From a virus (lineage: Duplodnaviria; Caudoviricetes), in the IMG/VR virus record IMGVR_UViG_3300023174_000037: a stretch of 64,000 nucleotides of DNA, one strand, 5' to 3'. Positions 35,112 to 64,000 of the stretch are shown in pieces; positions within the stretch are counted from its first letter, which is position 1; each line of letters opens with the position of its first letter. The notes below the pieces were generated by a model. It was not told the origin of the DNA, searched no databases, and saw only the letters and a list, made by a program, of their open reading frames with translations. Both the position numbers and the translations under genes were made by a program.

Positions 35112-36136
35112 AGATATAATCCTTCAATTTCTTTGGGATTATTCAATATATTTTGTATTTTAATGTTACTAATATTTGGTCTACATGGAGCACAAAATTC
35201 TACACGAGTTTTATTATATATTTCATAATGTCTTTCGTTCAACCAACTATTTCGGAAGTCCCCGGAATCCCAGTCAGCCAATTCAAATTGTGGATTTCCT
35301 TTGCCTTCACAACAAATGTATATTTTGCCGTCGGCACAAAATACAGGAAAGTGAAACATCTGATGACACTTTTTATAATTACGCGGCAGTGTTTTATTTT
35401 GATTGGCGTAGTAGGGCAACTTGTATTCTTGACTATATTTGTCTAACCTAGAAATAGTCTCTTCGGTAATAGGATAGGCTTGGTTGTTAATAATTACCGG
35501 ACGAAAATACAGCATACGTCCACCTAGTTGTTTAACCAACTTAAACAGATCGTTCATTGCTTCGTCAGTGTCGTTTAACGGATTAATTAATGCCTTAAAA
35601 TCAACATTGACTCCGGCTTGGATTAGGCCACGTGCATTGTCGCATACCTTAGTAAACAAACTTTTAGCAGTTAGGCTCCGACGTATTTTTTCATACAATG
35701 GTTGGGTTCCAGCATCAATATCAACACCAATCCAGGCCAACTTACGCAATTTATCCACGTGAACATTATCTAACAAACGATCTAAATTGCTGCCATTGGT
35801 AGTGATACTTCCAAGGAATCCTAGATCTATTGTGTGTTCAATGACTTGTTCGTAGTTGACCAATACAGTAGGCTCTCCTCCACCCGGATATGTTATAGTA
35901 TGCGTTGTTCCGTAACTGTTGGGAGTATGCGCTCTCCAACCGGCTAATTTATCTAGCAAGGAAATGTATTCTGTATATTTTTTTTGCACAGGCATTGCTG
36001 CTCTAAAGTCTGCACTGTTGCAGTAATAGCAGTCTTGATTGCATACATTAGTTAAATCAATGTCTACTTGTGCGGGCAATATTTTCATTGTGCCCTGATT
36101 TTTCATCCAATGAACTAGTTCGGCATATTGATACAT
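35108..36136 (-). CDS. Radical SAM protein with SPASM/twitch domain
   Basis: CNQDCYYC, GGGEP and C-terminal CH...C...CC...CAPC. Confidence 0.88.
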   Translation of the reverse strand: MYQYAELVHWMKNQGTMKILPAQVDIDLTNVCNQDCYYCNSADFRAAMPVQKKYTEYISLLDKLAGWRAHTPNSYGTTHTITYPGGGEPTVLVNYEQVIEHTIDLGFLGSITTNGSNLDRLLDNVHVDKLRKLAWIGVDIDAGTQPLYEKIRRSLTAKSLFTKVCDNARGLIQAGVNVDFKALINPLNDTDEAMNDLFKLVKQLGGRMLYFRPVIINNQAYPITEETISRLDKYSQEYKLPYYANQNKTLPRNYKKCHQMFHFPVFCADGKIYICCEGKGNPQFELADWDSGDFRNSWLNERHYEIYNKTRVEFCAPCRPNISNIKIQNILNNPKEIEGLYL

Positions 36137-36139
36137 CAG

Positions 36140-37093
36140 TTACTTATTGTACCAAGTCCATGCGTGTTGGATAACATCAGTTAACCCAAATTTTGGTTGC
36201 CACGAACTTGCACTCATAAATTTAGTAGGATCGGCAACAAGTTGAGCTGGATCTCCACTGCGTCTTGGACCATGCAAGTAGGCTATGTCTTTACTCAGCA
36301 CAGCAGATGCCGCCTGCAATACTTGTAGATTGCTATGACCTTGGTTGGTACCTAAATTATAAATGTTGGATTTAACGGAAGGATCAATTGCGGCAATATG
36401 AGCCTCGGCTAAATCCTCTACGTGGATATAATCACGAACGCAGGTGCCATCTGGGGTTTCATAGTCGGTGCCATACATAGTAAAGTCTTTGCCATCGCGA
36501 ACACTTTCTAAAAGTCTAGCAACAATATGTGTAGCACCTGGTGCTTGTCCATGACGACCTTGACTATCAGCACCACAGGCATTAAAATAACGGAATGAAA
36601 CAAAGTCCAAACCATATGCACGTTGGTAACTTCGCAACATCCAGTCAATCATCAATTTGCTTTCACCATATGGGCTAATTGGCTCAGTAGGATCAACTTC
36701 CTGCACAGGAGTCATAATAGGATTGCCATAGGTTGCGGCACTGCTACTAAAAATAATCCTAACTTGTTTGTCGTGATTTTTAACCAGATAGTCTAATAAA
36801 ATTTTAGTCTTGACAAAATTGTTATTGTAGTATTCTTCTGGATCCTGCACACTAGGACCAACCAGACTAGTACCAGCACAATGAACAATGGCATCAGGAC
36901 AAAATCTTTTAATAGAATCCAGTCCTATCTCACCAGAGTAATCCCCAGTGTGCCATTGACACGGAACAGGAATCAAATTCCCAGGTGGCATTACTCGATC
37001 AATAGCCAGCACATCGTGACCAGCATCTACTAATTTTAATAAAGTCTCGCCACCAATAAATCCTGCGGCACCAGTAACTACAACTTTGCTCAT
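36140..37093 (-). CDS. galE: UDP-glucose 4-epimerase
   Basis: TGAAGFIG, SSSAATYG, YGESK, RYFN and RDYIHV motifs. Confidence 0.92.
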   Translation of the reverse strand: MSKVVVTGAAGFIGGETLLKLVDAGHDVLAIDRVMPPGNLIPVPCQWHTGDYSGEIGLDSIKRFCPDAIVHCAGTSLVGPSVQDPEEYYNNNFVKTKILLDYLVKNHDKQVRIIFSSSAATYGNPIMTPVQEVDPTEPISPYGESKLMIDWMLRSYQRAYGLDFVSFRYFNACGADSQGRHGQAPGATHIVARLLESVRDGKDFTMYGTDYETPDGTCVRDYIHVEDLAEAHIAAIDPSVKSNIYNLGTNQGHSNLQVLQAASAVLSKDIAYLHGPRRSGDPAQLVADPTKFMSASSWQPKFGLTDVIQHAWTWYNK

Positions 37094-49048: not shown

Positions 49049-49681
49049 TCATTTTCCATCCACGTGTAATTGACTGCCTTTGTTGAAGCTGGGGCTAAAT
49101 GGACTCTGTGCCACACGCCCACCTTTGCTTTGACTCCATGCATAACCAGCACGATGACCTGAACAGTCTTTGGTGCAGGTTGATCCTAAGAAACTGAGTT
49201 CGTTTAGATCATCTTTTAAAAATGTATCAGCAAAGGCTTTGCATAATTTTTCAATTTTGGGATTGCGAGTAATTTCTATGTGATACTGTTTACGTATGCG
49301 TTCCTGGCTAGGATCTTGATAGCCGGCATAAACTTTATGAACACCAACATCGTCAACAAGATCACTACAGTTAATGCCCGCACGTTCGTCCATGTCCTGA
49401 GTGCATGGGCTACAAGTTGTGATAATAATGCTACCAGCAGGAATCTCGCCAAAGCGGGCATAGTAACTGTCTATGGCTGCACGTTCACCGTGAACACGCT
49501 TGCCATCTTTGGTAGGATAATTGATGCCTACTACACAATTGTTATCAGGATCTAACACTGCGGCTGCTACCATACCTAGGTCTTGATCTTTTTGTTGGCC
49601 TTGAATGACCATTTCGCAAAGACGCACTAGAATTTGATCTAGCTTGTTGTGATTGCTAATTTGAAAATCTGATATCTTCAT
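49049..49681 (-). CDS. Zn-dependent cytidine/dCMP-deaminase-like domain plus small Cys module
   Basis: HGE and SPC...C motifs; C-terminal CTKDCSGH after an LNE linker. Confidence 0.7.
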   Translation of the reverse strand: MKISDFQISNHNKLDQILVRLCEMVIQGQQKDQDLGMVAAAVLDPDNNCVVGINYPTKDGKRVHGERAAIDSYYARFGEIPAGSIIITTCSPCTQDMDERAGINCSDLVDDVGVHKVYAGYQDPSQERIRKQYHIEITRNPKIEKLCKAFADTFLKDDLNELSFLGSTCTKDCSGHRAGYAWSQSKGGRVAQSPFSPSFNKGSQLHVDGK

Positions 49682-52600
49682 TAGGCACCAAGAATTTGTC
49701 GAACTTGATTGACATAAGCACTGACATCACTGGTGCCAATTTCATCTACGTCACCCACATTGTAGGCCACTTCCTCTGCGGCCTGCATGACCTTGTCGGG
49801 ACCAAACTTCATCAACAGGTCTGTGTGTGCAACCATGATACGATTTAAGATAGCACGTTCAACTGCTTCACTGGCAGTGCTGGATTCTTCTCTAACAGGA
49901 TCTTTTAGCTTGCCGTAACGTGCTTCTAAATCTTTAAGAGCTTGTTTAATAATTTGTTTGTTGGCTGGATTAGAATCAACTGCCATCATACGGAATAACT
50001 TGTCGCGTTGATCCAAATACTCTTTGCGTGTAGTGGGTTCTTTCATCAAGCCTTCCGCCACACCTTGGTCTTTGTGTTTCTTAACGTCATTGGCAAATTG
50101 TTTTTTGGTTGCCTTTATGATTCCTGCAAAACGTTTGTCACCACGCTCAAAGTTGCCTGCTTTGTCGGCAGCACCAGCATCAAGTGCTGCGGCCTGTTTG
50201 TATTGACTTAATTTTTCATTGCTTAATTCATTTACAGTAGGGTTAGCACCGGTCAAGCTCACAGTCCACTTCTTACCGCTTGTAGCAGATTTCTTTTCTG
50301 CCCAACGACGCATGCCGTTTAGGTAAGCACGTTCTTCGGCACTGTCGGCGTAGCCTTTGCCTGGCACAACTTTCCAAACTTTACCGTTGATGGCAATGGC
50401 AATGTTGTTTCGCTCGTGACCTAGTTCGTGTTGCAGTTCTTTGCGTTTGAACTCACGACGCTCGTGATCACCTAGGCCTTCGCCCATTTCCATGTCCTTA
50501 CGATCTTTAGCACGTTTACGAGCATAGTCAGTCTGTGGATTCTTGGGTACGGGTTTAACCGGACGGCCAGCATCTACGTCACGCTCGCGTTGACGACGTT
50601 TTTGATAATCTGTCTGTGCTTCCGCCATACCTTTTGGTTTTTTGTGATGCTTCTTCATGTTGATAGCAATGGCCGCCTGCTGTGCTGGATTGGCAGCTTC
50701 GTCCAGTTGATCATCTGAGAAAGCCATAAAGTCATATGGTCCCCAGGGTTGGCCTGTGCGACCGTCATTGCCATCTAGATCACCATGCTCATAGTAGTCG
50801 TCACTGTAGATTTCTACACCGTCAAAGTCACTATTGTAATCAATATGTAGTTTACGTGTGACACCGTCGGGACAAACAATGCCACGATTCAGCAGGCGCT
50901 CTACGTCTTCTTTGCTCTTGATTCCTTTTTGCAAACTGCCAGTGTTGAATGTGCCATTGTACCAAGCACTGGCTAAAGCCTGGAAGTAATTGCCTGAGCC
51001 ACTTCCACCTGCAGGGGCAAATTCTTTTAAAGAGTTGCTTTTTGCTTTGGCAGCCGCTTCACGCTTCTTGCGGAAGATCTCACGGAAGTAATCATCATCT
51101 TCTTCCGGGCTGTAAGGATATGGATTGTGGTCACTACTGGGTCGTTTACGAGGTATATCTCCAGGACGGTCGTAATCAATGCCCGGCAAATCTTCCGGTC
51201 TAGCTTCTTCAACTTTGCCGGCGTTACGAGCTTTCCATGCAGTGGCATAGGCAATAGCTTTATCTTTGTCACTTAACCGGCCGTCTTTGCTCAAACTCTT
51301 TTTAATATGCTTGACCATACGTTCAGCTTTGGCACCAGGAGGAGCCACTTCTGTTACACCTTTGGCCTTGGCTTCTCGATCCAAATCTAGTCTACGTTGT
51401 AGGACAGCCGCTTGGTCAACATCTTTGTTCATTGACAAATCTTGTAAGGCTTTGCGTTTGGCCGCATAATCACCTTGAGGATCCTTTGAATTTAGTGCTG
51501 TTTCGGCTACCCGGTGGTTTATGCTCTCACCACCACCGTCTCCGCCGCCGTCACCTGATTCGCCGCCTCCATAATATGCATAGCCAGGAAAGAAATAACC
51601 TCCCATTGCTTTTGAAGATTTTTTCTTTTTCTTTTTCTTGCCTTCTGCTACACCTTCATCATACCAATCATTTTCTTCCTCTTGGTCAGCGTAATCATTA
51701 TAAGCAACATCACTTAGGTGCATACTGTGTTTGCCGTGATTGTATAAGTCCACAATAACAAATGAGCCACTTGGACTGAAATCATATATCTCACCAGTCT
51801 TGCCTTCAAACTCATTGGGTGCTATTACCACAACTGGATCGCCACGTTGTAGGCGTTGGCCTTCGTTTATAGCTTCTGCTGCTCGTTTTAAACTCTGAAC
51901 AGGCGGTTGTGTTTCTGCATCGTTGTCTGGAAATAAGTCAACCACATTACCACCTCTCATGCTAGCGGGTGCTGGATTATTGTTAATACCTTGAACTTGT
52001 CTTGGTTGTGACAAACTCCGAGCCATTTGACTCATCGCATTGGATTTTGATTTAAATTGTTGCACAGGCTCAGCTGGTTCAGCTTTGGCTGCAGGTTGGG
52101 CTTGGGGTTCTGCATCTGCAGGAGCATTTGGAATTAAATTAATTGCTCGAGATTGCGATCTATCAGTAGTATCAGTGCCGTCGGACTGACCTTGTCCGCT
52201 CATTTGGCCAATGGTCTGTGCTAGTTTTGCATTGGTTTGTTCTACATTTGCTAGTTGTTGTTCCAGACGGTCGTTTTCATTATCTAAACTGCCAATTTCT
52301 TTGCCTTGTTTTCGATCCAGAGCCACTAGCTGTTGTAGCAGTCGATCTTGTTCGGTGTTGGCACCTTTGATAGCCGACAATTGTTGTTGGCTTCGCTCGT
52401 TGGAATCTATTTCACTTTTGGCCACAGCTTCCACATCGCTTCGCGCCGCAGGATATTGAGCACGAAGTTTTTGTAACTCTCTAGCAACTTTAACATCGCC
52501 AGCGGCTACATCCGAATTGGAGTTAAACTTTTTTTTTTCTTGTAGTGGCAGTTCGCCCTGGGTAGGAATGCCTGGAAGTTCGGGCTGGACTGCACTATGC

Positions 52601-53376
52601 CAACCTAATCGTTTCAAAGTGGTCACGACTTCATCTGCGCTGGGCAATACACGATAGATAAAATGATTTTTCATTTGATCATTTTCTAAGCCATCGTAAT
52701 AGTCGCTGATCAAGTCAAGGCCTTTTTTATCTAAATGAATGTTGTCTTTGGGGTTAGGAAATTCTAATGTAACACTAGGAATATTACCCATGTTGGCTTT
52801 AAGTAATCGTTGGAAGTTGCCTACACCAAATGCTCTAGGCGACTGTGGGTAATCTCCATATGGGCTTTTTTCTTCACGAAATGCTTCTGGTGGGTTTTCT
52901 TTGAGCATACGCTCAACTTGTGCAACATAAGCACTGACATCACTTGAACCAATTTCGTCAACATCGCCCACATAGTCGGCCACATTGTCAATGGCTGCAC
53001 CTACCAGTTCAGGACCGTATTGTTTTAATAAATCGTGACGTTGCATCAAAATACGACGAGTGATTGCGCTGGCCACTGGACTGTCGTGTTGCTCATCCAA
53101 CTTGCCTTTAGTTGTGCCCAGACTTCCTGTAGGGTCCATACCGGTGGCAGGATTAATTTTAAAGTAGCTGTCACGTTCGGCTTTGATCTTTTGAAATTGT
53201 TTCTTAAGTCCAGCCAATGCCGCAGGATTCTTTTTGTAAGCAGGTTCTTTGGCACTATCTAACAGTTCTAACATTCGCATGTTTAGGTCATCAATGCGGC
53301 GAGCTTCAAGGTTGTCTACTGCACCTTCTTTGAGTTCTCGTTCATATTTTGTGTTGAATAGGTCTAATGCAAACAT
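49681..53376 (-). CDS. Modular 1231-aa putative head-packaged polyprotein
   Basis: About 15 hydrophobic-x-E linkers; internally duplicated VGDVDEIG module; KOW-like and coiled-coil modules. Confidence 0.7.
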   Translation of the reverse strand: MFALDLFNTKYERELKEGAVDNLEARRIDDLNMRMLELLDSAKEPAYKKNPAALAGLKKQFQKIKAERDSYFKINPATGMDPTGSLGTTKGKLDEQHDSPVASAITRRILMQRHDLLKQYGPELVGAAIDNVADYVGDVDEIGSSDVSAYVAQVERMLKENPPEAFREEKSPYGDYPQSPRAFGVGNFQRLLKANMGNIPSVTLEFPNPKDNIHLDKKGLDLISDYYDGLENDQMKNHFIYRVLPSADEVVTTLKRLGWHSAVQPELPGIPTQGELPLQEKKKFNSNSDVAAGDVKVARELQKLRAQYPAARSDVEAVAKSEIDSNERSQQQLSAIKGANTEQDRLLQQLVALDRKQGKEIGSLDNENDRLEQQLANVEQTNAKLAQTIGQMSGQGQSDGTDTTDRSQSRAINLIPNAPADAEPQAQPAAKAEPAEPVQQFKSKSNAMSQMARSLSQPRQVQGINNNPAPASMRGGNVVDLFPDNDAETQPPVQSLKRAAEAINEGQRLQRGDPVVVIAPNEFEGKTGEIYDFSPSGSFVIVDLYNHGKHSMHLSDVAYNDYADQEEENDWYDEGVAEGKKKKKKKSSKAMGGYFFPGYAYYGGGESGDGGGDGGGESINHRVAETALNSKDPQGDYAAKRKALQDLSMNKDVDQAAVLQRRLDLDREAKAKGVTEVAPPGAKAERMVKHIKKSLSKDGRLSDKDKAIAYATAWKARNAGKVEEARPEDLPGIDYDRPGDIPRKRPSSDHNPYPYSPEEDDDYFREIFRKKREAAAKAKSNSLKEFAPAGGSGSGNYFQALASAWYNGTFNTGSLQKGIKSKEDVERLLNRGIVCPDGVTRKLHIDYNSDFDGVEIYSDDYYEHGDLDGNDGRTGQPWGPYDFMAFSDDQLDEAANPAQQAAIAINMKKHHKKPKGMAEAQTDYQKRRQRERDVDAGRPVKPVPKNPQTDYARKRAKDRKDMEMGEGLGDHERREFKRKELQHELGHERNNIAIAINGKVWKVVPGKGYADSAEERAYLNGMRRWAEKKSATSGKKWTVSLTGANPTVNELSNEKLSQYKQAAALDAGAADKAGNFERGDKRFAGIIKATKKQFANDVKKHKDQGVAEGLMKEPTTRKEYLDQRDKLFRMMAVDSNPANKQIIKQALKDLEARYGKLKDPVREESSTASEAVERAILNRIMVAHTDLLMKFGPDKVMQAAEEVAYNVGDVDEIGTSDVSAYVNQVRQILGA

Positions 53377-53386
53377 TTATTTTTCC

Positions 53387-54082
53387 TTATGCTTCGTCAA
53401 TGTAATCTGCTGAGTCGTTGATCTTGCGACGACGTGCCGCGAACATTTCCAAGGCCATCTCAGCCTCATCTAAATTTTTAAAACGTGTGGGCAATCGACG
53501 ATTGCCGTGGCGGATTTCAAAGCCAGTTTTTTCGTTGCCGTGAACTTCAAACATGCCACATTCGTTGGTAATGACTTTAACTGCAGCTGATTCTTTCATA
53601 CTGACACCTTCTTCACCTGGTGGCTGTTGGGCAGGAACAACACCACTCAAGGCCGAGTCTAGTTCGCCTTCGGTTTCTTTGACTTTTTGTTGTTTGGCAA
53701 CAAGAGCACGGTCCACTGTGCTTTTTTCTTTTATATCAGTGTCTTCGTGCTTTTTGTCTTTGAGATCTGAATCTTGGCGAATTTCGTCAGTGACCGTTTT
53801 TAAATAGTCAGCAAATGAAGATTTAACTCGATCCAAAACATCTTCACTGGTAATGGCTTCCTCCAACGGCTCTTCGTCATTTTCGACACTTTCTTCGGCA
53901 CCACCGACTAGTTTGCCAGCCATGGGATTTTTAGGATCTGTTTTGGCTGTGAGCACTGCTACAGTTTTGGGTTTGAATGTAGGGCCAAGTTGGTTTACAC
54001 TTCGTTGATTCGTGTTTAATCCTTCTTCGATAACACGAAGACGTTCAACAATGGTGTATATACTGTTATGGTCGTGTGCCAT
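53387..54082 (-). CDS. Acidic hypothetical protein (possible head/scaffold-associated)
   Basis: ORF track; acidic with x-x-E linkers. Confidence 0.65.
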   Translation of the reverse strand: MAHDHNSIYTIVERLRVIEEGLNTNQRSVNQLGPTFKPKTVAVLTAKTDPKNPMAGKLVGGAEESVENDEEPLEEAITSEDVLDRVKSSFADYLKTVTDEIRQDSDLKDKKHEDTDIKEKSTVDRALVAKQQKVKETEGELDSALSGVVPAQQPPGEEGVSMKESAAVKVITNECGMFEVHGNEKTGFEIRHGNRRLPTRFKNLDEAEMALEMFAARRRKINDSADYIDEA

Positions 54083-54085
54083 AGA

Positions 54086-54526
54086 TCATGCCCTTGCGTC
54101 CTTCAAATAACTCTTTAACTGCCACATGTATTTGCCATGACTGCTTTGGCGTTCTGCGGCAAAGTTTGCAACATCTTCACGACCTTCGGCACTGGCAGCA
54201 TCAAATACTTGCTTGCTCATGTCGACCATGGTCTGTGTATCTGCGAGTAATTCTTGTAACATTAATCGGGCACGAGGAACCTTGATCTGGTCCTGTATTT
54301 GTGATAATTCTTGGAAACGATTTAGGCTTCCTGGGGCATATTCTTCTGTGGTACGGATGTATTCAGCAATGGGATCCACAGCTGAATAAGCGTCTTCGTA
54401 GATTTTTTGGAAAAACTTGTGTAATTGACCAAAGTCTGGACCCTCCACGTTCCAGTGAAACATGTGGGCCTTTAAGTAATAGGCAAATGTTGAGGCCAAG
54501 TAAGTTTTTAACAAATCTGCTAGCAT
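54086..54526 (-). CDS. dps: Dps / ferritin-like protein
   Basis: YLKAHMFHWNVEGPDF.QLH.FF..IYE and D.IAE.IR motifs. Confidence 0.92.
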   Translation of the reverse strand: MLADLLKTYLASTFAYYLKAHMFHWNVEGPDFGQLHKFFQKIYEDAYSAVDPIAEYIRTTEEYAPGSLNRFQELSQIQDQIKVPRARLMLQELLADTQTMVDMSKQVFDAASAEGREDVANFAAERQSSHGKYMWQLKSYLKDARA

Positions 54527-54732
54527 TATTTCTTCCGTTTATACTTTTTATACTCTGCAGGCGTGTTGGGCGTTGCATCGTCAGTAGTGTATTTAGCGCC
54601 AGAAAAGAAAGAACCACCATTTCTTGATAATGTAGTGCCTAACGGCATACTAACTGTGGCTATGCTGCCGCTGGTAGTGCTGGCCGTACTGGCGCCATCT
54701 TCTTGTAAGTTAACAAATTCATGCAATCTCAT
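54526..54732 (-). CDS. Small hypothetical protein (MRLHEF... leader)
   Basis: ORF track; coupled. Confidence 0.6.
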   Translation of the reverse strand: MRLHEFVNLQEDGASTASTTSGSIATVSMPLGTTLSRNGGSFFSGAKYTTDDATPNTPAEYKKYKRKK

Positions 54733-55028
54733 TGGTATGGGGCCTCGTCAATAATTGTTAGAACATTATTTTTTATAGTTCCAGGACCAAAATCCACACG
54801 CATATCTGTTACAGTTAGCCAGGCCAAGTGCGGCAAAACCAATTCATGACGTATTGTGTATTCACCAGGTTCGGCTTCAATTTGTAACAGTTCTTCAAGA
54901 TAATGCTCGGTCCAGCGCCAGGTGCGTTCAGCAAATAATTCATCGTTGACATAGGTACGATAAATGGGTTGAAAACTTTCCCATTCGCAATCAATATTAC
55001 ACAGCACCCGTATGAATTGTTTGGACAT
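54729..55028 (-). CDS. Hypothetical protein
   Basis: ORF track; CTAAATA upstream. Confidence 0.65.
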   Translation of the reverse strand: MSKQFIRVLCNIDCEWESFQPIYRTYVNDELFAERTWRWTEHYLEELLQIEAEPGEYTIRHELVLPHLAWLTVTDMRVDFGPGTIKNNVLTIIDEAPYQ

Positions 55029-55046
55029 GCTGTATTTAGTAGCGTT

Positions 55047-55247
55047 TTATTTGACTTCTTTTACACTGCCAACATGCCATTCTTCTACACCGTATTGTGC
55101 CCGCATTAACCTACGTGCTTCTGTGGCATTGGCGGCGGTTACAGTGACATCAATCCAGCCCACATAGTTGGGTTGTTGTATCCGGACCTGTGCAGTCCAT
55201 AATTTATACTTGGGGTATATGTCTCGGGCTTTCATCGTCCAGTCCAT
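55047..55247 (-). CDS. Small hypothetical protein
   Basis: ORF track. Confidence 0.6.
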   Translation of the reverse strand: MDWTMKARDIYPKYKLWTAQVRIQQPNYVGWIDVTVTAANATEARRLMRAQYGVEEWHVGSVKEVK

Positions 55248-57256
55248 TTAGCTATCATACTAACACGGTTACTGCTATAAATGCCAGTGCCACGTCGTGT
55301 GCTACGCATACTACGTCGACCGGGCTCTACAGGAAATGTGTATCGAGTCCATGTGGCATTTTGATCTACAATTTGATCACCGCGTTTCTGGCGATAATCT
55401 TCAGTGGGCTCCATTGCATAACCCTTGACTTCTACACCCGGAATTGAATTTAACATGAGCCACATGGCTTGTCCAAATTTGGTCTGTGTTTCTCCGGTTT
55501 CAAGCGTGAGTTTAAGGATCGTGAGAGCAATACCATACAATGCTTTGCCCAGCCCGCGCCCACGATAATCAGGATCATTGGCCACAGTTTCTACACGCCA
55601 GGTTTTAAGCGGATCAAGGGTGGCACTAAGATCAAGTTCTGCGACCAATGTATCTCCATCAAAGATCATGATTTCCAAAAACTCAGGATCTTTTCGGTTC
55701 ACCGCATAAGAGAATTGACTACCACCTGGCAAGGGTTTAGTTTTGGGCTTTTTTGCCATGGGCATCAGTGTGTCCTTATCACCAAAGTCGCCTTGTGGTA
55801 TGCGGGCTATTTCATCTAACTCTGTTTCCCATACACGTTTACTACCGCGATTCTTATTCCAAAAATGTTTTCCGGCATCAGTCTGCTCGTGACTGCGTTT
55901 TACTTGATAGCCAAGATCTTTGGCATAATCATACATGACAGCCGCAATACCTTGTCCACGATATGCTTCATCAACTAATAAATCCCGTGCTATTAACGTT
56001 TTGCCCGCAACATCAAATACTACTCGTGCTAGATTACGGCCATGTGTATCTGCATCAATTGTTAATTCATTTCCATATTTGTGTGCTGTTAAATCAAGTC
56101 CATCTCTATATGCTTGTTTAACTGCAGGTTCGGCATCTTCAATGATGCCAGTGCTACGACGTAAGCGTAAATCAAAGTCTACATCAGAAATATAGTTACG
56201 AATAAACTTTTCATAATACTGTTGTGCAAGAGCCGGAGTATCAGCTTCAAAACGATCTACTATCTGTGAGCCGCCAGCAGGACGATCAGCGTGATAAATT
56301 TCATAGCCTTTGTTCAAGCGTTCTCTAGCTTGACTCATACGGTCCATTCTGTTACTGACTTGACGGTCAGCACGACTCAAATAACTTTGTAATCGTTCAT
56401 CGCTGATTTCATTGACATCTTGTTTACGAACTGGCTTCCAATGGAATACTGTCATGCCCATGCTGGGATATTCTTCATGCGCCCACTTTGGTCCTAAAAT
56501 GTTCTGCACCACTGGTACAAAGTATTTGCGATACAGGTTGGCGCGGTTGTCACCTTTGGCAGTAAATGATACGCCAGGCGGGCGAGTCTTGGCAATGTAT
56601 TCAGGCAATTGTTGTTTGATCACGTTGAGCACTGTGCTCAATATTCGAACAGTTGACTTACTAGCACTTGTAGGCTGACTTGGAGCATCATAGTCGCTGT
56701 TTACAGTAAATGTAATGTGTAAGGTACCGTTAAATTCGCTGCGATCAAAGAACACATCCACCCAATGTCCATCCACAGTAGAGTGAAACAAACTGCGTTT
56801 TCTTTTGCGGTTGGGTTTGTAGTCAGCTGGTGCGTTGCCTAATTCTGTAAGTTGTTGAACCGGCGCCCAGGCCTGTATATCTGATCTATTCAACAGGTTG
56901 GCGGCGGCCCAAGCTCTGTGATTGCCATCTATGATCCAACCTTTGGAGTCTACCACAATAGGTCTACGATCCACAAAGTTTGCACTATATTCACCCGCAT
57001 GGTCAGGGTCTACAGTTTGCACTCGATTGTATGGATCTTGTTCGGGCTCTTGTTCTTCGTCATCGTACTCTTGATCAGGTATGTGCAAACTGTTTAATGC
57101 AACACGTCGTAGTTCATACTGCGGATAGCGCAGGATCAATTTTTTTAAAAATCCACCACCCTGTTGGTCTTTGGGGTGTATGCCATCTACATAATTCCAC
57201 ACCTGTTCAGCTGACACAACTTTGGCAGATTCAATGACAAATTCACGGGCTTTCAT
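55232..57256 (-). CDS. Modular protein: ParB/Srx-like domain plus two GNAT-like domains
   Basis: PIVVD..GWIIDGNHR; VDEAYRGQGIA and DPDYRGRGLGKALY motif A. Confidence 0.75.
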   Translation of the reverse strand: MKAREFVIESAKVVSAEQVWNYVDGIHPKDQQGGGFLKKLILRYPQYELRRVALNSLHIPDQEYDDEEQEPEQDPYNRVQTVDPDHAGEYSANFVDRRPIVVDSKGWIIDGNHRAWAAANLLNRSDIQAWAPVQQLTELGNAPADYKPNRKRKRSLFHSTVDGHWVDVFFDRSEFNGTLHITFTVNSDYDAPSQPTSASKSTVRILSTVLNVIKQQLPEYIAKTRPPGVSFTAKGDNRANLYRKYFVPVVQNILGPKWAHEEYPSMGMTVFHWKPVRKQDVNEISDERLQSYLSRADRQVSNRMDRMSQARERLNKGYEIYHADRPAGGSQIVDRFEADTPALAQQYYEKFIRNYISDVDFDLRLRRSTGIIEDAEPAVKQAYRDGLDLTAHKYGNELTIDADTHGRNLARVVFDVAGKTLIARDLLVDEAYRGQGIAAVMYDYAKDLGYQVKRSHEQTDAGKHFWNKNRGSKRVWETELDEIARIPQGDFGDKDTLMPMAKKPKTKPLPGGSQFSYAVNRKDPEFLEIMIFDGDTLVAELDLSATLDPLKTWRVETVANDPDYRGRGLGKALYGIALTILKLTLETGETQTKFGQAMWLMLNSIPGVEVKGYAMEPTEDYRQKRGDQIVDQNATWTRYTFPVEPGRRSMRSTRRGTGIYSSNRVSMIAKWTGR

Positions 57257-58134
57257 CGCATAGCCACCTGATAAGATTTAAATTGGTCCTGTCGTGACTG
57301 TAGACCTTTTGATGCAGGATTGATTTTTTTAGTAACCGCATTAGTATTACTAAAGTCTTTGATTTTTGGAGCAACACGATTTTGCCAATACCATACAGCT
57401 ACCTTGGCGGCAACGTCGGGTCTAGCCGCCAGGTCTGGCTGTTGTGCTAGAGGTAGTCCTAGCGCGGCACCAGCACGAGTGTAATTGTCACGGCCGGTTA
57501 ATTGTATATAACCACGTCCTTTGTAGCGTTCGCCGTCGCCTTTGACTTTGTTGCCTAAGATCTTGGCCTTGCGTGGATTTTGTTCATATTTTTTAGTAAA
57601 GTAAGCTGGGCTACCACGTTCTTCCATGCTGGCAAAGTTTGCACTCTCATGAGCACATTGCGCCAAGAACTGTGCCAGTTCTGTGCCTTGGATGCCACTG
57701 GCCATGGCAACAGATCGTAATTGATTAACTGGACCTGCTTGTTGTGCAGGAGCTTGCACTTGTGCAACAGGCGCCTTTGCTTGTGGAGTTGGTGCGGTCA
57801 TTTTTGCATTGGCTGCGCTGCCACCCAAGGCCATTGCTCCGGCTAAGGCGGCACCACCTAACGCACTCTTCCAACCTTCTTCTAAGTCTTCTAGTTCTTC
57901 AGCTGGCCAACTAATAAAACTGTTACCGTTAACATCGCCAGCGCGAACAACAAATGCGCCGCCGTTGTCATAACCTTCGTCTTGACCAATCTCCCAGCCC
58001 ATTGCAGACAGAGCACGTTCAGCACGTGGATCTTCGTCACCTTGCCACCACTGTGCGGCTAACCGGTGTAGTATTTCTTCTTCATTGGGCTCTCTATCGT
58101 CACCACCTGCGGATGCAAATTCATACAGTCTCAT
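57253..58134 (-). CDS. GH19 (chitinase/lysozyme-like) muramidase with N-terminal module and internal signal-like segment
   Basis: AQFLAQCAHES, YKGRGYIQLTGRDNY, AVWYW and KKIN motifs. Confidence 0.85.
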   Translation of the reverse strand: MRLYEFASAGGDDREPNEEEILHRLAAQWWQGDEDPRAERALSAMGWEIGQDEGYDNGGAFVVRAGDVNGNSFISWPAEELEDLEEGWKSALGGAALAGAMALGGSAANAKMTAPTPQAKAPVAQVQAPAQQAGPVNQLRSVAMASGIQGTELAQFLAQCAHESANFASMEERGSPAYFTKKYEQNPRKAKILGNKVKGDGERYKGRGYIQLTGRDNYTRAGAALGLPLAQQPDLAARPDVAAKVAVWYWQNRVAPKIKDFSNTNAVTKKINPASKGLQSRQDQFKSYQVAMR

Positions 58135-59109
58135 TTAGCAATTCCAACGACGACGTGCCTTGCAAATAGCTTTGTCTGGAGTCTTGGCACATGAAATATT
58201 GTGCATCTTCATTTGTCCACGACTGCGTGAGCAATAACTCTTTCTACGCTTTGACGCTTTGCTACCTTTTTTCAACTTTGAAGGCTTGGTAGTCACTGCT
58301 GTTTGTAGTTTGCTACCAGGATGCTCGCGGCGATATGTTTTAACTGCTTTACGACTCATACCGTCTGTCTTGTCTCGATTGTTGGCTTTTTGCCAGGCTT
58401 CGGATTCCATTAATGGGTCAGAGGTCACAGCAAACACATACAGTTCATCTTCTGTGAGACTTTCTAAATCCGCCCAAACTGCTTCTGCATCAACACCATT
58501 GTGTTCAGCAATGGTTTCAATGATACTCTCAATAAGATCAAATTCTTCATGCAGTTCAGCCCTGGCTTCCATACTTAGGCCTGTGCCCAGTTCAAGAATT
58601 CTGCTGAGTTCATCCATGTTCATCTCCTTGTCTTCATTTTTTACACAGTTTGGCACACGTTTACCAAACAGTTCTTTCATGCCTTCTTTGTGATAGCCTT
58701 TCCAGCAGGCTTCATCTAGATTTTGATTGTGCTCGTGTGTTTCACACATGCCACAGTCTTCACAGACCATTTCCATTTCAACACTTTCATTGTGTTTCTT
58801 TTTGCCTGCACAATGCGCCCGTTGGCTAAAACCTTTGGGATGGCTACAGTTAATACTGCTTTTGTATTTCTGACTCCACTTTTCATCCAGTTGATCTACA
58901 CTCTCACTTTTGTTGCCATAATTGGCCGCGCCTTTTTTACGGCATTGTACCAAGCGTCCTGACGCATAGGCACTGGGCCAAACTTTTGCTGAAGCCTTGA
59001 CCTTGTAATAGCAAGCATCTTTCTTTTCGGCAAGTATTAAATCTGTAAATGCAGGACCGCCGCATTCTGGGCAGGTTTGATGAGATTCAAATAAGTCAGT
59101 TATAATCAT
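58135..59109 (-). CDS. Modular Cys/Lys-rich protein
   Basis: CPECG, CY.KVK..KVWPSAYASG, CWKGY and CSRSRG modules separated by x-x-E. Confidence 0.65.
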   Translation of the reverse strand: MIITDLFESHQTCPECGGPAFTDLILAEKKDACYYKVKASAKVWPSAYASGRLVQCRKKGAANYGNKSESVDQLDEKWSQKYKSSINCSHPKGFSQRAHCAGKKKHNESVEMEMVCEDCGMCETHEHNQNLDEACWKGYHKEGMKELFGKRVPNCVKNEDKEMNMDELSRILELGTGLSMEARAELHEEFDLIESIIETIAEHNGVDAEAVWADLESLTEDELYVFAVTSDPLMESEAWQKANNRDKTDGMSRKAVKTYRREHPGSKLQTAVTTKPSKLKKGSKASKRRKSYCSRSRGQMKMHNISCAKTPDKAICKARRRWNC

Positions 59110-59366
59110 TTTTTCTTAGTGGCCACGTTGATGGCCGCTCCTTTTCTATTGGCGTTAGGATCCTGCCTGCGTTTACGAGCTGCCGCTGATGCACGACCTT
59201 TTTTGCCCAGGGCATGTGCTTTGGCCTGTGGCAAACATTTGGGCTTGCCTTCTTTTTCAGATCCACGGGCACAGTCACCACGAATCTTGCCATCGGGCCC
59301 AAAACGTACCCATTTTTCTTTGAACCAGTCACGTAGATTTTCAGTTACAAACTCACTGGCTCTCAT
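59106..59366 (-). CDS. Small basic protein (MRASEFVTE leader)
   Basis: ORF track; TAAATA upstream. Confidence 0.7.
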   Translation of the reverse strand: MRASEFVTENLRDWFKEKWVRFGPDGKIRGDCARGSEKEGKPKCLPQAKAHALGKKGRASAAARKRRQDPNANRKGAAINVATKKK

Positions 59367-62300
59367 TTTTTCTTTCCTCTACGCATATTTATTTGCCAAC
59401 GTGCCAGCTGGCCTTTACGACCCGGTGCTTTTGCAGCCTTTTCTAATTGAGCCATAGTGGCACCTTTGGGTATGCCGTGACGCTGACTGTCTCCAGGACG
59501 TCCTGGACCTTTACCGTCAGCAAAGTTTTCCGCCACACCCGACGCTTGTTTTGTCAGCGTATAAGTTGCGCCACCTGGCATATCACTTCTTTCCAAATCG
59601 TAACCGCTGCCGCTGATGTAGCGTCGAAGCATTCTATCATACAGTCTAGCTCTACTGCCGGTAGGGTCATCCTCTTTTTCTGCACTGAAATTCAACCGCG
59701 CTGGTTTACGCTTGGCGATGAATTGTTGCATGGCAGCGAGCACAGTGGCAAACACTCGTGACGCATCACCTTCACCGGTGATCTCCATGTTTTCGTCACG
59801 CTCAAACTCCACCATCCAACTGTTGTCGCCTTGAGCCATGAACAGCACAATTAGTTCACTGCCGTCATCCAAGTCAGCAGTGGCATGCCAGTCACCATTT
59901 TGTTTGCGCCATTCAACGGCATAAGGTTGATCAAAGGCTTCGTTTATTGTCTCGGTCGGAGTCCATTCAAAACTAGAAACTGGCACTGAATATTTGTCAC
60001 TGAGTTTTTGTAGCAGTGCATCTAGCGTGGCAACAGGAATATTTTTAGCAACTACACGTTGGCCACGACTGCCTGGAACTGGACGATAGTATACATCAAC
60101 ATGTTCAGGATCAATGATGCGTGATTCTGCTACAGCAAATTGATTGCCCAATTGTTTTGCTAAACTTTTTTGTCTATTGATATTGGCCGGAGTGCCTGTA
60201 CCACTTTGTTTGTGATCAAACACACCATACAGTTTGATCACAGTAGGGTCACGACCATCGACACTGTAGAACAAACTGAGATCTCTGGTTAAATGCACAT
60301 GGCGCAACTTTGGCACTTTGGCCAAAGGACCAGCTGCAACAAACGGTGTGTCTTTGCCCCAAGGACGACCAGGGTTGTCGGTTTTAAATGCTAAAAATTC
60401 CTGTATCTTTGCTGGCAAGTTGGGCAGTTGGTTAGACTTGTCAGCTACTGTTTGATCAAACATACTGCTCTTTCTAATTTCAACATTATTGCCAGACTCT
60501 GACAGCATCCATGCACCTTGATCTATTTCCAGCAACAGGTTGACCAAGGCAGGATCAATACTTTCGATCATGACCGGTACTACTTCAATCTGTGTCATGT
60601 CCGCATCAGCAGGTCCATTTTGTTGCAACCATAAAGAGGCTATTCTGTTAGCATCGGCTTGACTGTTGCCTACGCCACGGAATCTATACAGTTCTTGCCC
60701 GGTATCAGTATCCAAGATTCGCCACTGTCCACTAAAACTGTTGCCTGGTGGTGCCGAACTGGCCTGATTTGTGGCGCCAAACAAGTCTCTGAATGAATAA
60801 TCAATGTTGCGGCCATCGGTTCTGTCCTGCGGGAAGTTCTGTTCTATATCCAAGGGCACTTCGGGAATGGATCCAGTTAATCTAGCCTGTAAGTCTGCGC
60901 TGTCTTGGGCGTTGTCCACAGCCTGGTTAGCATCTGCAGCCTTGGTCATTGTTGGAGCTGAGTCAGTGGTTTTGGGTCTCACGTCAAACAGATCAGGTTG
61001 TTCAGCGCCTACGCTCTTTAACCAATTTTTGCCATCTGTTTTCGCATCAGCAGCAGTGTCGCTTAAGAAGGTATGAACCACATGTCCGGTTTCTTTTTCG
61101 TACACTTCCCAATAAGGAACACCACGTTCGTTTGTGTCCTGTTTGGGTTTTTGTTGTTTAGGGTCTGTAATACGCTTGGCCAACTTGGCACGTGGTGTCA
61201 GTGTTTTAGGATCCACATACGGACGCACATTGAATCCTATGTTTTGATTAAGATACTTGTCAAATACTTTGTCAGCGGCAGCACCTTTGTTTGCAGCTTG
61301 AACTATTTCAAGTGTTGCACCAGTTTTAACATCATACACTTCCCACTGTTGATTGTCACTCATGTTGACCAATTGGTATTCACCCGAGTCCAAGGCTTCA
61401 CGACCGTATTTCATCCATACTCTATTTTTAACTTCGTCTTCTTGGAAGCCACGATATTCAGCACCTGGTACTGCGGTCCAGACGCCGTTGACCTTTTGAT
61501 ACAACTTGAAATACTGATTTATTTTCTTTTCATTACCTAGAGTTTTTTCGGCCCAGAGTTTCTTGAGTTGTTCTTTGTCTAGTTCACCTGCGGCATACTG
61601 ACTAAACAAGGCCAGTTGACTGTCGCCTTCGGGGGCAATTAATTTGTATAATTTTTTAGCATACTCTCTACGATCTGTGCTGGCGCTGGCAGCAATTTGC
61701 ATGGCACGGGCATAACGCAACATGGTACTTTGTAATTTTTCAGGATCAGCTGATTCTTCAGCCAACCAATCGCCTCCGGCACTGCGGAATTCTATGTAGC
61801 CATCTTGTATGTGAGCACTGGTATACTTGCCTTGTCCTACACCCTTTTGAATTTCTCGTTGTGCTAATTCAAGCAAGCCATGTTGCATCAACTTCAAAGC
61901 ACCGGCTGGATCTGCACGACCTGATTTGAGATTTTCACGGAAGCTCTTCATTGCTGACTTGGTGTAAGTGTTGGCTTCGCGGCCAAATTGTTGTAGAACA
62001 TATTCGTCACCTAGGAACAGAATAAGTTTTAGGTAGTCAACATCACCACCTTTGTATGGAACACTAACGCCCATGTGTAGGCCAGTTGAATCGTTAGTGT
62101 AAGCATTGCCTTCTGTGCTGTTGGCCCAGTCTGTGACTTGTTGTAATTTTTCCAAGGCCACTAGTAATGGCATTGGAGGACTTACTATTTCCAAACCGTA
62201 GTCTTCACGATCATCTGGACTCAAACTTGAATCTGGCTCTACAATCCATTGGCCTTCTTTACGTGTGGTACTGTGATAATTTGAACTTACTTTGACTGGC

Positions 62301-64000
62301 ATGTCTACAACACCTTGTAAACTGTTTCCAATATCATCCCAATCACGTGACCCATCATTGCCGCCGCCACCGGTCATGTAGGGCCAGTCTAAACCGTACT
62401 CACTGGCCACATCACTCATGTAGCGTAGGCCCGCATCATCAAAGAAACCAGAGTCGTCATCTATCTGATAATTGTCGCGGAAATCATCCAGTGCGGCATC
62501 CCAGTTTGCACCTTCTTTTCTTACTTCGTCGGCTACTAGATCATCCAATAGGCCTTCGGCTTCGCTTTGTGCATCTAGGTATTTTTCATACAGGGGATTT
62601 TCTTTTGCGTAGGCTTGCTGTTCGCTTGATCGGGTAAATTTAGGAGCAGTTTCTCCAGCTTTGATAATTTCATTTATTTCTTCATCTGACAAGTCCAACA
62701 AGGCCAACTGTTTTTGTATCTCGTCGTCCTCATCCCAATCACCTTCGTCAACCAGCACTTTACGAATCAAATCTTCGGCTTCGTCTCTAAATTCTCGAGT
62801 CATTTGTTCGTCGTACCACTCGTAATAGGCTTCATCCAACTGTTCTTGTAGTCGTGCTTCTTGCCTAGAACTTAGTCCACCATATTCGCCGTTGTTAAAG
62901 AAGTCTATAATCTGACTGATACTGCGAACACGTTCGTCGGCATCATAGTCGGGTTCCATTTCGTAATCACTGTCACCATTGTTGGTGGTGTCACGGAAGA
63001 TCAACTCAGCTTCAAATCCGGCACGTATACCTTCGGCTTCTGGACTAGTGGCCCATTTCATCAGGGCCGACGGTGACATTTTAACTTCGTCCAACTGTTC
63101 ACTTTCGGCCAAGGCAAACAGTTTCTTTTCTGCTACCTGCTTGTTGAACATTGTATAACTACGCAAGAATTCTTTTTCTTGTCGTGTAAGTTCGCGGCCT
63201 TGTTGGACTTTGGCCACTAAAAATTTATAATAGTCTGCTTTGTCACGATTCTTGGATACCGGTGCTTGAATATTTTCTTTAAACTGCGCCAGCTCTAATG
63301 CTAATTTTTCAAACAGGCCATTGGCCTTGGCAATCTGCGGAACGCCTTGCTTGTTTGTTTTGAGATTTAATTTGTTGGCTTCTTTGCCAATTTGTCCCGG
63401 CTTGATGTCCACTGTGAGTGCCATACTATAACGTGGATCCTTGGCCTGTTTCTTTGTGGGAATATAACCCGATGCACCTTCGTTGGTTGGCCCAGACGGC
63501 TTTTGCTGATTTTGTTTTTGTAGTTGATATAGCCGACTTTGATTTTGTGCGTTGACTTCACCGCGCTGAGCACGAATAAAATTGTTTAGTTCTTGAGCAA
63601 CGTCAGCTTGTATTACTGTGCTATTGTATTGTTTGGCATTGTAAAGAACACGAGCCGCATCCATTGGCCGCATGCCTTGTTGAGTAGCACAACCACTGAG
63701 ACTGCCTCCGCCGATGATGCAGGCACTTAATGCGGCCACAGCCGATCCTTTAAGGCCTTCATCAACATCTTCTTCGTGTAGGTTGTTGGCTTGTTTCTTT
63801 GTGGAAATGTAACTTGATGCTGATTCAGTGACAGAAAGTCCATGTTTTTGAATGAACTCTTGCATTTTGTTTTCAATCCATTGATCTTCTTGACCAGCCA
63901 TTCTTATTTTATATAGATTTTTGTCATTGTATTCATAGCGACTTTGGTCTTGAAAGTATTTGGAGATTTGTTCAAATGCAGCAAAAAGCTCTGGAGTCTT
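59363..64000 (-). CDS. Very large modular polyprotein with amidoligase-2-like and RelE-like modules; 5' end beyond the window
   Basis: The frame stays open from 63901 to 64000; DSSL, STGLH and YIEFRS motifs; x-x-E linkers. Confidence 0.75.
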   Translation of the reverse strand, partial: KTPELFAAFEQISKYFQDQSRYEYNDKNLYKIRMAGQEDQWIENKMQEFIQKHGLSVTESASSYISTKKQANNLHEEDVDEGLKGSAVAALSACIIGGGSLSGCATQQGMRPMDAARVLYNAKQYNSTVIQADVAQELNNFIRAQRGEVNAQNQSRLYQLQKQNQQKPSGPTNEGASGYIPTKKQAKDPRYSMALTVDIKPGQIGKEANKLNLKTNKQGVPQIAKANGLFEKLALELAQFKENIQAPVSKNRDKADYYKFLVAKVQQGRELTRQEKEFLRSYTMFNKQVAEKKLFALAESEQLDEVKMSPSALMKWATSPEAEGIRAGFEAELIFRDTTNNGDSDYEMEPDYDADERVRSISQIIDFFNNGEYGGLSSRQEARLQEQLDEAYYEWYDEQMTREFRDEAEDLIRKVLVDEGDWDEDDEIQKQLALLDLSDEEINEIIKAGETAPKFTRSSEQQAYAKENPLYEKYLDAQSEAEGLLDDLVADEVRKEGANWDAALDDFRDNYQIDDDSGFFDDAGLRYMSDVASEYGLDWPYMTGGGGNDGSRDWDDIGNSLQGVVDMPVKVSSNYHSTTRKEGQWIVEPDSSLSPDDREDYGLEIVSPPMPLLVALEKLQQVTDWANSTEGNAYTNDSTGLHMGVSVPYKGGDVDYLKLILFLGDEYVLQQFGREANTYTKSAMKSFRENLKSGRADPAGALKLMQHGLLELAQREIQKGVGQGKYTSAHIQDGYIEFRSAGGDWLAEESADPEKLQSTMLRYARAMQIAASASTDRREYAKKLYKLIAPEGDSQLALFSQYAAGELDKEQLKKLWAEKTLGNEKKINQYFKLYQKVNGVWTAVPGAEYRGFQEDEVKNRVWMKYGREALDSGEYQLVNMSDNQQWEVYDVKTGATLEIVQAANKGAAADKVFDKYLNQNIGFNVRPYVDPKTLTPRAKLAKRITDPKQQKPKQDTNERGVPYWEVYEKETGHVVHTFLSDTAADAKTDGKNWLKSVGAEQPDLFDVRPKTTDSAPTMTKAADANQAVDNAQDSADLQARLTGSIPEVPLDIEQNFPQDRTDGRNIDYSFRDLFGATNQASSAPPGNSFSGQWRILDTDTGQELYRFRGVGNSQADANRIASLWLQQNGPADADMTQIEVVPVMIESIDPALVNLLLEIDQGAWMLSESGNNVEIRKSSMFDQTVADKSNQLPNLPAKIQEFLAFKTDNPGRPWGKDTPFVAAGPLAKVPKLRHVHLTRDLSLFYSVDGRDPTVIKLYGVFDHKQSGTGTPANINRQKSLAKQLGNQFAVAESRIIDPEHVDVYYRPVPGSRGQRVVAKNIPVATLDALLQKLSDKYSVPVSSFEWTPTETINEAFDQPYAVEWRKQNGDWHATADLDDGSELIVLFMAQGDNSWMVEFERDENMEITGEGDASRVFATVLAAMQQFIAKRKPARLNFSAEKEDDPTGSRARLYDRMLRRYISGSGYDLERSDMPGGATYTLTKQASGVAENFADGKGPGRPGDSQRHGIPKGATMAQLEKAAKAPGRKGQLARWQINMRRGKKK

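Follow-up and report, generated by a model that had tools for sequence, protein, structure and literature searches.

Candidate capsid-cargo polyproteins in an uncultured jumbo phage: T4-like leaders and prohead-protease motifs at the junctions of shuffled modules

Why should a single phage operon encode a series of proteins that begin with similar short peptides and then continue as strings of unrelated domains? This question is raised by positions 49049-64000 of a 64,000-nucleotide (nt) stretch of DNA from the IMG/VR virus record IMGVR_UViG_3300023174_000037 (Duplodnaviria; Caudoviricetes), the whole of which is referred to below as the window. The window is part of a jumbo phage genome of approximately 350 kb (the longest contig carrying the 324-amino-acid (aa) protein described below is 349,716 bp), and nearly all of its genes are located on the minus strand. 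Region 49049-64000 contains twelve genes, all on the minus strand, which abut, overlap or are separated by gaps of no more than 18 nt and form one tight operon. The family-B DNA polymerase (43289-45946) shares 50% identity with its counterpart in Sinorhizobium phage Phosso and 47% with that in Agrobacterium phage Atu_ph07, the nearest phages by this protein, so that the phage falls within the T4 superfamily, in the group of T4's giant relatives. No similar DNA was found in cultured phages. One metagenomic contig, L001, is identical to the window and runs 5 kb past its end, and the cluster proteins of a related contig, G003, are approximately 82-85% identical to those of the window.

An earlier note on this DNA had proposed that the genes encode cargo which is packaged, cut into separate effectors in the head and injected. 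We favour, with moderate confidence, an answer of the same kind: the operon would encode late-expressed capsid-cargo polyproteins that are targeted to the head, cut by a gp21-type protease at the motif [ILVM]xE (x, any residue) and injected into the host. The observation that gave rise to this idea, i.e. the shared leaders and the positions of the motifs, is confirmed and lies far beyond chance.

All five leaders quoted in the earlier note are present, namely MKAREFVIE in the 674-aa protein (57230-57256), MRLYEF in the 293-aa protein (MRLYE, 58120-58134), MRLHEFVNLQE in the 68-aa protein (54700-54732), MRASEFVTE in the 86-aa protein (59340-59366) and MIITDLFE in the 324-aa protein (59086-59109). 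Three further starts of the leader type were detected, in the 210-aa protein (MKISDF), the 1231-aa protein (MFALDLF; MFALDLFNTKYERELKE, 53326-53376) and a giant open reading frame (ORF) of 2072 aa, whose start, MNITELDSYNLED, was read from L001, 1581 nt past the end of the window. The patterns M[KR]xx[ED]F or MxxxDLF are found in seven genes of the cluster, eight with the giant ORF, and in none of the approximately 80 other genes of the window at their first start codon; the scan, a regular expression applied to every start codon in six frames, gave one internal chance match outside the 49-64 kb cluster. The strict form M[KR]xx[ED]F opens 5 of 98 called genes, compared with approximately 0.05 expected when residue frequencies are used for a rough estimate. 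With lengths of 5-17 residues, the leaders end in a hydrophobic residue, any residue and glutamate (VIE9, VTE9, LQE11, LFE8, ITE5, LYE5, LKE17). The likeness to T4 claimed in the note was borne out by comparison with NC_000866, in which the internal proteins (IPs) IPII and IPIII begin with MKTYQEFIAE, IPI with MKTFKEF...TITE and Alt with MELITELFDE; the window contains both types. In T4, the IPs and Alt bear short capsid-targeting propeptides (PMC9026906; PMC5694885).

Leaders of this kind (MRASEFITE, MRANEFLIE, MKANEFITE, MRAEEFLIE) are also present in related jumbo-phage contigs of IMG/VR. The strict leader DNA pattern gave six exact matches in the complete 367-kb contig G001 and none in a reversed control; genes of the relatives were called simply as longest ORFs, a crude procedure that overlooked two leader genes of G001. 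Among 120 public homologues of the 324-aa protein, with genes called by others, 92 of the 113 that start with Met carry the leader. The leader codons vary synonymously, which indicates that it is the peptide that is conserved and under selection. For the same reason, a nucleic-acid signal was set aside as an explanation of the leader.

The second observation concerns the hydrophobic-x-E triplets, which the earlier note had listed as separators of domains. All of the listed triplets are present and about one-third of them stand at junctions, but most are ordinary occurrences inside domains. The motif [ILVM]xE is indeed common: the six proteins tested contain 85 sites (0.013-0.018 per residue), many of them within folded domains such as the Dps, GH19 and GNAT cores. 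It is frequent by chance; the signal lies in the position of the motif and not in its presence. In the window, 17 of 40 clusters of homology breakpoints carry the motif, compared with 8.8 +/- 2.4 expected (p=0.0014, permutation), and none of the control motifs ([ILVM]xD, [ILVM]xK, [AGST]xE, [KRDEQN]xE) is enriched there; for [AGST]xE, 11 were observed and 8.8 expected (p=0.24). When boundaries were compared with the rest of the proteome, as the note had suggested, enrichment was 2.18-fold in the polyprotein set of all contigs and 0.95-fold in the remaining proteome. BLAST end points are fuzzy; the alignments nevertheless start most often exactly at the hydrophobic residue (57 of 411). The idea that the junction motif is a by-product of Glu-rich linkers was set aside, with values of 1.29-fold for xxE, 1.02-fold for [KRDEQN]xE and 0.64-fold for [ILVM]xD against 2.18-fold for [ILVM]xE.

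Analysis of individual modules revealed the same pattern. In eight module families (AFxQPY, NFADG, LGNxPxxYKP, KWSxKYK, MSPxxL, ISDERL, IARIP and FAxAGG) the motif stands ahead of every homologous copy, be the upstream neighbour a leader or a different module. In the public set it occurs at a fixed offset in 172 of 180 unique module-start contexts, against a background of 21%; these homologue counts are not independent events and correspond to about eight independent module families. Thus LGNAPADYKP directly follows the leader MRAEEFLIE in L013 and the sequence ..QQLTE in the 674-aa protein of the window (E138), and KWSQKYK follows the leader MKANEFITE in G003 and G004 and ..DQLDE in the 324-aa protein (E76); in public contexts, KWSxKYK has [LVI]xE ahead of it in 55 of 57 cases. 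AFDQPY is preceded by INE, VTE (five times), ILE, LEE or the leader MRASEFITE, NFADG by MAE, VAE, VWE, VEE or LNE (six different upstream contexts), and FAxAGG by the leader MRLxE (MRLYE here) or by internal VDE, LKE or VNE. The amidoligase module, internal in the giant ORF, begins the protein right after the leader in L019, L013 and G002 (MRALEFLNETQVLDE, MRYKELLSEQQLDE). The relatives carry the same modules in different orders, and in the alignment of the 674-aa protein with its relatives modules are swapped after a conserved [ILV]xE.

AlphaFold2 models were used only for the position of low-confidence segments, the models being poor (mean predicted local distance difference test score (pLDDT) 50.6 for the 674-aa protein and 48.8 for the 324-aa protein). 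In the former, E9, E138, E283, E373, E477 and E482 fall in segments with pLDDT<50 and three non-junction motifs in helices or strands; in the latter, equally weak model, the junction motifs lie in low-confidence linker segments. Hydrophobic modules resembling signal peptides directly follow two junctions, with LEE preceding GWKSALGGAALAGAMALGGSAANA ahead of the GH19 domain of the 293-aa protein and VDE preceding the lipobox-like GLKGSAVAALSACIIGGGSLSGC in the giant ORF. A signal-like module of the GWKS type is itself shuffled, always after [LV]xE, and is also present in a 1253-aa protein of G004. Such segments would need a new N-terminus to work in export, which fits cleavage, although this step is speculative.

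These results bear on a rival explanation in which the internal junctions are left intact. The leaders would be removed as true capsid-targeting tags and full-length polyvalent proteins would be packaged and injected; the junction motif would be a scar of fusion, arising from recombination within the leader-coding DNA of once separate genes, or simply a favoured linker end. Each module is found somewhere in first position behind a leader, so that a joint formed by fusing leader-bearing genes would retain xxE, and polyvalent proteins as described by Iyer et al. (PMC5512222) are largely regarded as large multidomain entities. However, what persists at the joints is the three-residue protease motif alone, and traces of M-[KR]-x-x-E-F were not seen. 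Diverged orthologues, and copies behind different upstream modules, differ in the middle residue but agree without exception in the hydrophobic residue and the Glu. Moreover, the motif is kept in cyanophage fusions that lack any leader, and the signal-peptide-like modules directly behind junctions are intelligible only if they become new N-termini. We consider this explanation, with packaged proteins that stay uncut, unlikely.

A suitable protease is encoded by the relatives. A member of the gp21 family (Peptidase_S77, PF03420) was detected above the Pfam cut-off in four of five large related contigs, G003 included (the gp21 homologues of G003 and G001 are encoded at 157658-158302 and 62183-62818), where it sits in a T4-like head block consisting of portal, small core proteins, protease, scaffold and capsid protein. 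The specificity of gp21 is L/I-X-E (PMC9026906). The N-termini of the relatives' capsid proteins contain LLE, LLE, ILE and L-x-x-E sites ahead of a conserved mature start (in the T4 counterpart, gp23, ..FLTE is followed by AEIGG), and their gp22-like scaffolds show a motif density of 0.06-0.08 per residue, compared with 0.0135 in the proteome.

The sequences upstream of the genes point to late expression. In G001, TAAATA is located 2-14 nt ahead of the ATG in 39 of 430 genes, compared with approximately 3 expected (about 13-fold), and in the extended window it occupies this position in 6 of 98 genes. It precedes the portal gene of G001 and several leader genes, as well as the first gene of the operon in the window, G004 and G001; the giant ORF has a terminator-like hairpin and TAAATA (L001:3511-3528) 6 nt before its ATG, and a further example is found in the window at 55029-55046. 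This hexamer is probably the core of a T4-type late promoter, from which transcripts would begin with a very short 5' leader or none. Four relatives encode a late sigma factor resembling gp55.

A link to virions is provided by T4-like cyanophages, in which the small Cys/basic modules and DUF6321 are fused in one structural-block gene and joined by [VMIL]xE. In ORF29 of S-SCSM1 the same modules are joined by VSE63, MTE198, FNE and VSE436. The GenBank record labels ORF29 'virion protein'; a supplementary file of the corresponding paper lists it as hypothetical only. That paper reports 45 proteins from mass spectrometry of purified virions, 13 of which have no known function (PMC9602691). The cytidylyltransferase of S-CREM2 (gp154), labelled '(virion protein)', starts with MKNFSSFLTE followed by A, which is a T4-like targeting leader.

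Packaging itself could be questioned. The proteins might be cytoplasmic multidomain enzymes and lysis proteins, their shared N-terminus serving translation, regulation or turnover; the GH19 protein, with its Gly/Ala-rich hydrophobic segment, would then be a signal-anchored endolysin, and the deaminase and Dps would have metabolic or DNA-protecting roles. The operon does adjoin replication genes (the DNA polymerase mentioned above) and not head genes, it includes leaderless genes of housekeeping type (Dps), and the hydrophobic segment of the GH19 protein resembles a signal-arrest-release anchor. However, the ip and alt genes of T4 are likewise scattered away from the head genes. In phages with the same head machinery as T4, the leader is similar to the T4 capsid-targeting sequence, and it ends in the protease motif. 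Furthermore, a late-promoter-like TAAATA precedes the operon, one homologue is labelled a virion protein, and codon variation speaks against an RNA-level signal. We consider this reading, in which the proteins remain unpackaged, quite unlikely as a whole. Least probable of all, and in our opinion very unlikely, is cutting of the modules by a host protease or by the zincin-like metallopeptidase embedded in the giant ORF (HExxH in HELTHRHQHE and a weak Peptidase_M78 match, E=0.015), although metallopeptidase-mediated processing is proposed for polyvalent proteins by Iyer et al. (PMC5512222), since the M78 match is below the Pfam threshold, the junction motif agrees with the specificity documented for gp21 (PMC9026906) and recurs in the relatives' capsid propeptide and scaffold, and the junction grammar is kept by the other polyproteins (the zincin-like motif is absent from the 674-, 1231- and 324-aa proteins) and by many relatives without a zincin module.

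Returning to the cleaved, packaged cargo that we favour, we infer head targeting, cleavage, head retention, ejection and the roles of the modules as follows. A leader of the form M-[KR]-x-x-E-F-[ILV]-x-E, or an Alt-like M-x-I-T-[DE]-L, would direct the entire polypeptide to the prohead's scaffolding core. The cargo would consist of strings of unrelated modules (nucleotidyltransferase, zincin-like, amidoligase, ParB-like, two GNATs, GH19 muramidase, deaminase, basic Cys modules and DUF6321), each joined to the next by [I/L/V/M]-x-Glu. The activated gp21-type protease would strip off the leader and cleave behind every junction Glu. Modules of 5-25 kDa would thereby be set free, and one tagged precursor would yield several small proteins in equal numbers. 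These would stay in the head with the DNA and be ejected into the host at infection, where they may have early roles in takeover, cell-wall passage or counter-defence; judged by domain content, an anti-defence arsenal is plausible. Cutting would solve two problems, as a single tag could load many activities and the pieces would be small enough for the tail. The signal-like segments after junctions might, more speculatively, serve in export only once cleavage has placed them at an N-terminus, and new cargo would be gained by in-frame shuffling of modules at the junctions.

Several points weigh against this reading. No member of the clade is in culture, and the strict leader DNA pattern is absent from cultured Phosso, Atu_ph07, Vibrio phage 2.275.O and fHe-Yen9-04. 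The protease gene of the phage itself was not seen, its head genes lying outside the window. Several operon genes (the Dps-like 146-aa gene and those of 99, 62/66 and 231 aa) have no leader and may not encode cargo, and the cyanophage homologues also lack it. In S-CREM2, the neighbouring homologues of the nucleotidyltransferase and Cys modules are not flagged as virion proteins. The predicted precursor of 230 kDa is far larger than any natural capsid-targeted cargo of T4, both structure models are poor (mean pLDDT of about 50), and something other than cleavage could account for the conservation of the junction motifs. The interpretation given in the earlier note thus holds in part: motif enrichment and likeness to T4 support it, whereas the leaderless genes and the location of most of its triplets inside domains do not.

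The giant ORF (L001:3529-9747) is represented in the window by its C-terminal 1545 codons (residues 528-2072; 59363-64000). It comprises a nucleotidyltransferase, an HExxH zincin-like module, a lipobox segment, an amidoligase, several unknown modules, a DUF6934-like module (AFDQPY...) and a basic tail (NFADG...), with Pfam matches to NTP_transf_2 (4.6e-5), Amidoligase_2 (5e-7) and DUF6934 (1e-3) besides the weak M78 match. Its homology to the relatives is mosaic and cultured phages match it through single modules only; for residues 1674-1819 no Pfam family was found at E<=0.5. The motif VAE (E2018; 59528-59536) stands directly before the NFADG tail and is conserved in all five spanning alignments, INE (E1881; 59939-59947) directly before the DUF6934-like module in all seven. 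The junction region before the amidoligase module (..MSPSAL..) contains VAE818, LAE826 and LDE832 (63086-63136). The motif VDE608 and the lipoprotein-signal-like segment that follows it (residues 609-633, 63683-63757; together 63683-63766) were located by a Kyte-Doolittle scan and direct reading.

The next gene, of 86 aa (59106-59366), joins its leader to a basic LRDWF module, which is internal after VSE or VKE(E) in cyanophage proteins; in public homologues, LxxWF has [VIL]xE directly ahead of it in 14 of 14 contexts. The 324-aa protein (58135-59109) is a string of small Cys/basic modules and DUF6321 (Pfam, 4.5e-8) with junctions at LDE76 (58882-58890), MDE167/ILE173 (58591-58617) and LME235 (58405-58413). 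In the 293-aa protein (57253-58134) the leader is followed by an acidic FASAGG module, LEE86 (57877-57885), the signal-peptide-like segment (57805-57876) and a GH19 muramidase/chitinase-type domain (Pfam Glyco_hydro_19, 4.3e-14; PHROG endolysin, 3.8e-40).

The 674-aa polyprotein (55232-57256) consists of a ParB-like module (residues 10-138), an unknown module (139-283), a segment 284-373 and two GNAT domains recognized by Pfam, with junctions at LTE138 (56843-56851), VNE283 (56408-56416), IIE373 (56138-56146) and VWE477/LDE482 (55811-55834). No homologue of this protein was found among 50,697 phage records. The assignment of the ParB-like module is suggested by the motif DGNHRAWAA and by an ESM-Atlas lead to ParB_N clusters (score 0.92, a lead only); Pfam gave no match and a PDB profile search gave noise only. 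In polyvalent proteins, a DdrB-like ParB domain is among the modules of phage type.

Downstream of it lie a small gene with no clear leader (55047-55247), whose product has 66 aa, or 62 aa if translation begins at the internal MKARDIY, a 99-aa gene without a leader, which has TAAATA 4 nt ahead of its ATG (54729-55028), and the 68-aa gene (54526-54732), whose leader contains LHE5 and LQE11, the latter conserved in three of three cases. The following gene, also leaderless, encodes a Dps/ferritin-like protein of 146 aa (54086-54526; Pfam Ferritin, 2.3e-21; PHROG DNA-binding protein), and its position inside the operon is kept in the relatives. The 231-aa acidic protein (53387-54082) has no canonical leader; IVE13 and VIE19/IEE20 are conserved near its N-terminus.

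The 1231-aa polyprotein (49681-53376) shows mosaic homology to the relatives and almost no Pfam matches. Its junctions are LKE160, VEE724, LKE785 (before FAPAGG), LDE893, MGE966 and VNE1050. A module of approximately 60 aa at residues ~99-160 (52897-53082) recurs at ~1165-1231 (49684-49880), with the pattern ..AI..RI......L....GP......A...VA..VGDVDEIG.SDVSAYV.QV...L, and is also found at the ends of relatives' proteins. The last gene (49049-49681) encodes the 210-aa protein, a cytidine/deoxycytidylate (dCMP) deaminase (Pfam dCMP_cyt_deam_1, 2.2e-8), in which LNE161 (49199-49207) is followed by a small Cys module, ..CTKDCSGH.. (49052-49198). For most modules or segments of the operon proteins, Pfam gave nothing even at relaxed thresholds. 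Content of the polyvalent type is found in the giant ORF (nucleotidyltransferase, zincin-like, amidoligase and DUF6934) and in the 674-aa protein (ParB-like and two GNATs).

Upstream of the operon, L001 carries a gene for a ClpB-like AAA+ chaperone (758 aa, truncated where the locus ends; L001:1-89), a 257-aa gene resembling cytidylyltransferases and nicotinamide mononucleotide adenylyltransferases (NMNAT) (L001:1744-2517, approximately 3 kb past the right end of the window) and a 297-aa gene (L001:2568-3461). The cytidylyltransferase gene is located two genes upstream of the operon and has TAAATA 7 nt ahead of its ATG; the order cytidylyltransferase, nucleotidyltransferase module, Cys modules is common to this phage and S-CREM2, and enzymes of the cytidylyltransferase kind have been reported in virions of S-CREM2 and S-SCSM1. 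Elsewhere in the window, a radical-SAM-like protein and a nucleotide-sugar epimerase (PHROG) are encoded side by side at 35108-37093, possibly for sugar modification of DNA or the virion.

Phage-injected proteins are known for few model phages, and they decide the first minutes of infection through counter-defence, takeover and cell-wall passage. If our reading is correct, a large and abundant clade of uncultured jumbo phages (at least 8000 public homologues of one member protein were found) tags its injected cargo and punctuates it with protease sites. Injected effectors would be predictable from sequence, a polyprotein strategy would exist in tailed phages, and the acquisition of cargo would be explained by in-frame insertion of modules at junctions. 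Foreign proteins are already packaged by means of the targeting and processing system of T4, which would be extended to multi-protein payloads. More tentatively, and in our view rather improbably, the grammar, one head-targeting tag and then any number of modules delimited by [ILVM]-x-E, would be general for phage-injected effectors and readable from sequence, and some modules would be cryptic Sec or lipoprotein signals through which the host would re-sort the fragments to the membrane or periplasm; speculative examples are GWKSALGGAA...ANA and GLKGSAVAAL...LSGC, each preceded by the junction E, which would function only after the head-protease cut. Were this so, the system would be a true counterpart of the polyproteins of eukaryotic viruses, and thousands of injected effectors could be predicted from metagenomes.

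Among known systems, the IPs and Alt of T4 are the closest in the leader, which there too is short, N-terminal, very similar in sequence and terminated by hydrophobic-x-Glu. The mature parts behind it are likewise highly polymorphic and unrelated, the genes lie away from the head genes, and protease, scaffold and capsid protein of the lineage are of the gp21, gp22 and gp23 kinds, which in the present case were seen in relatives. The leader of the window is, however, similar and not identical, having one residue fewer before E-F (consensus M-R/K-A-x-E-F-I/V-x-E), and its hydrophobic position can also be V or M. In contrast to the T4 proteins, with which there is no sequence homology, the predicted cargo consists of strings of up to approximately ten modules (674, 1231 and 2072 aa) with the motif at every junction.

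Two further groups share other traits. In the giant phages phiKZ, 201phi2-1 and SPN3US (PMC5694885, PMC9026906), a diverged gp21 homologue cleaves many packaged proteins behind the Glu of a three-residue motif, in some cases at several sites. There the motif is S/A/G-x-E and the propeptides, mostly of more than 100 residues, are discarded, whereas here it is I/L/V/M-x-E, with [AGST]xE not enriched, the leaders have 5-17 residues, the sites stand between modules that all resemble functional cargo, and the lineage is different. In cyanophages, the multi-module protein encoded beside the small terminase gene (S-SCSM1 ORF29, S-8S53, P-RSM1, S-SRM01) has the same Cys/basic modules, DUF6321 and [VMIL]xE joints, but it is a single structural-block gene without the M-[KR]-x-x-E-F leader or large enzyme modules.

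The content of the strings resembles that of the polyvalent proteins of phages and conjugative elements (Iyer et al. 2017, PMC5512222), in which 2 to 15 unrelated effector-type domains share one polypeptide. They are described as giant mosaics with nucleotidyltransferase, GNAT, lysozyme, ParB-like, zincin-like and many unknown domains, predicted to be packaged and injected and subject to rapid domain shuffling. Processing by an embedded zincin is proposed there, whereas here the zincin-like motif is confined to the giant ORF and the junction grammar is common to all. T4-like leaders or prohead-protease motifs at domain junctions are not mentioned in the passages searched of PMC5512222 and of a later survey of jumbo phages (PMC7824862), and a search of the accessible literature for prohead-protease polyproteins returned papers on T4 and SPN3US only. 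Both components, the capsid-targeting system of T4 and proteins of the polyvalent type, are already known; what would be new is their combination.

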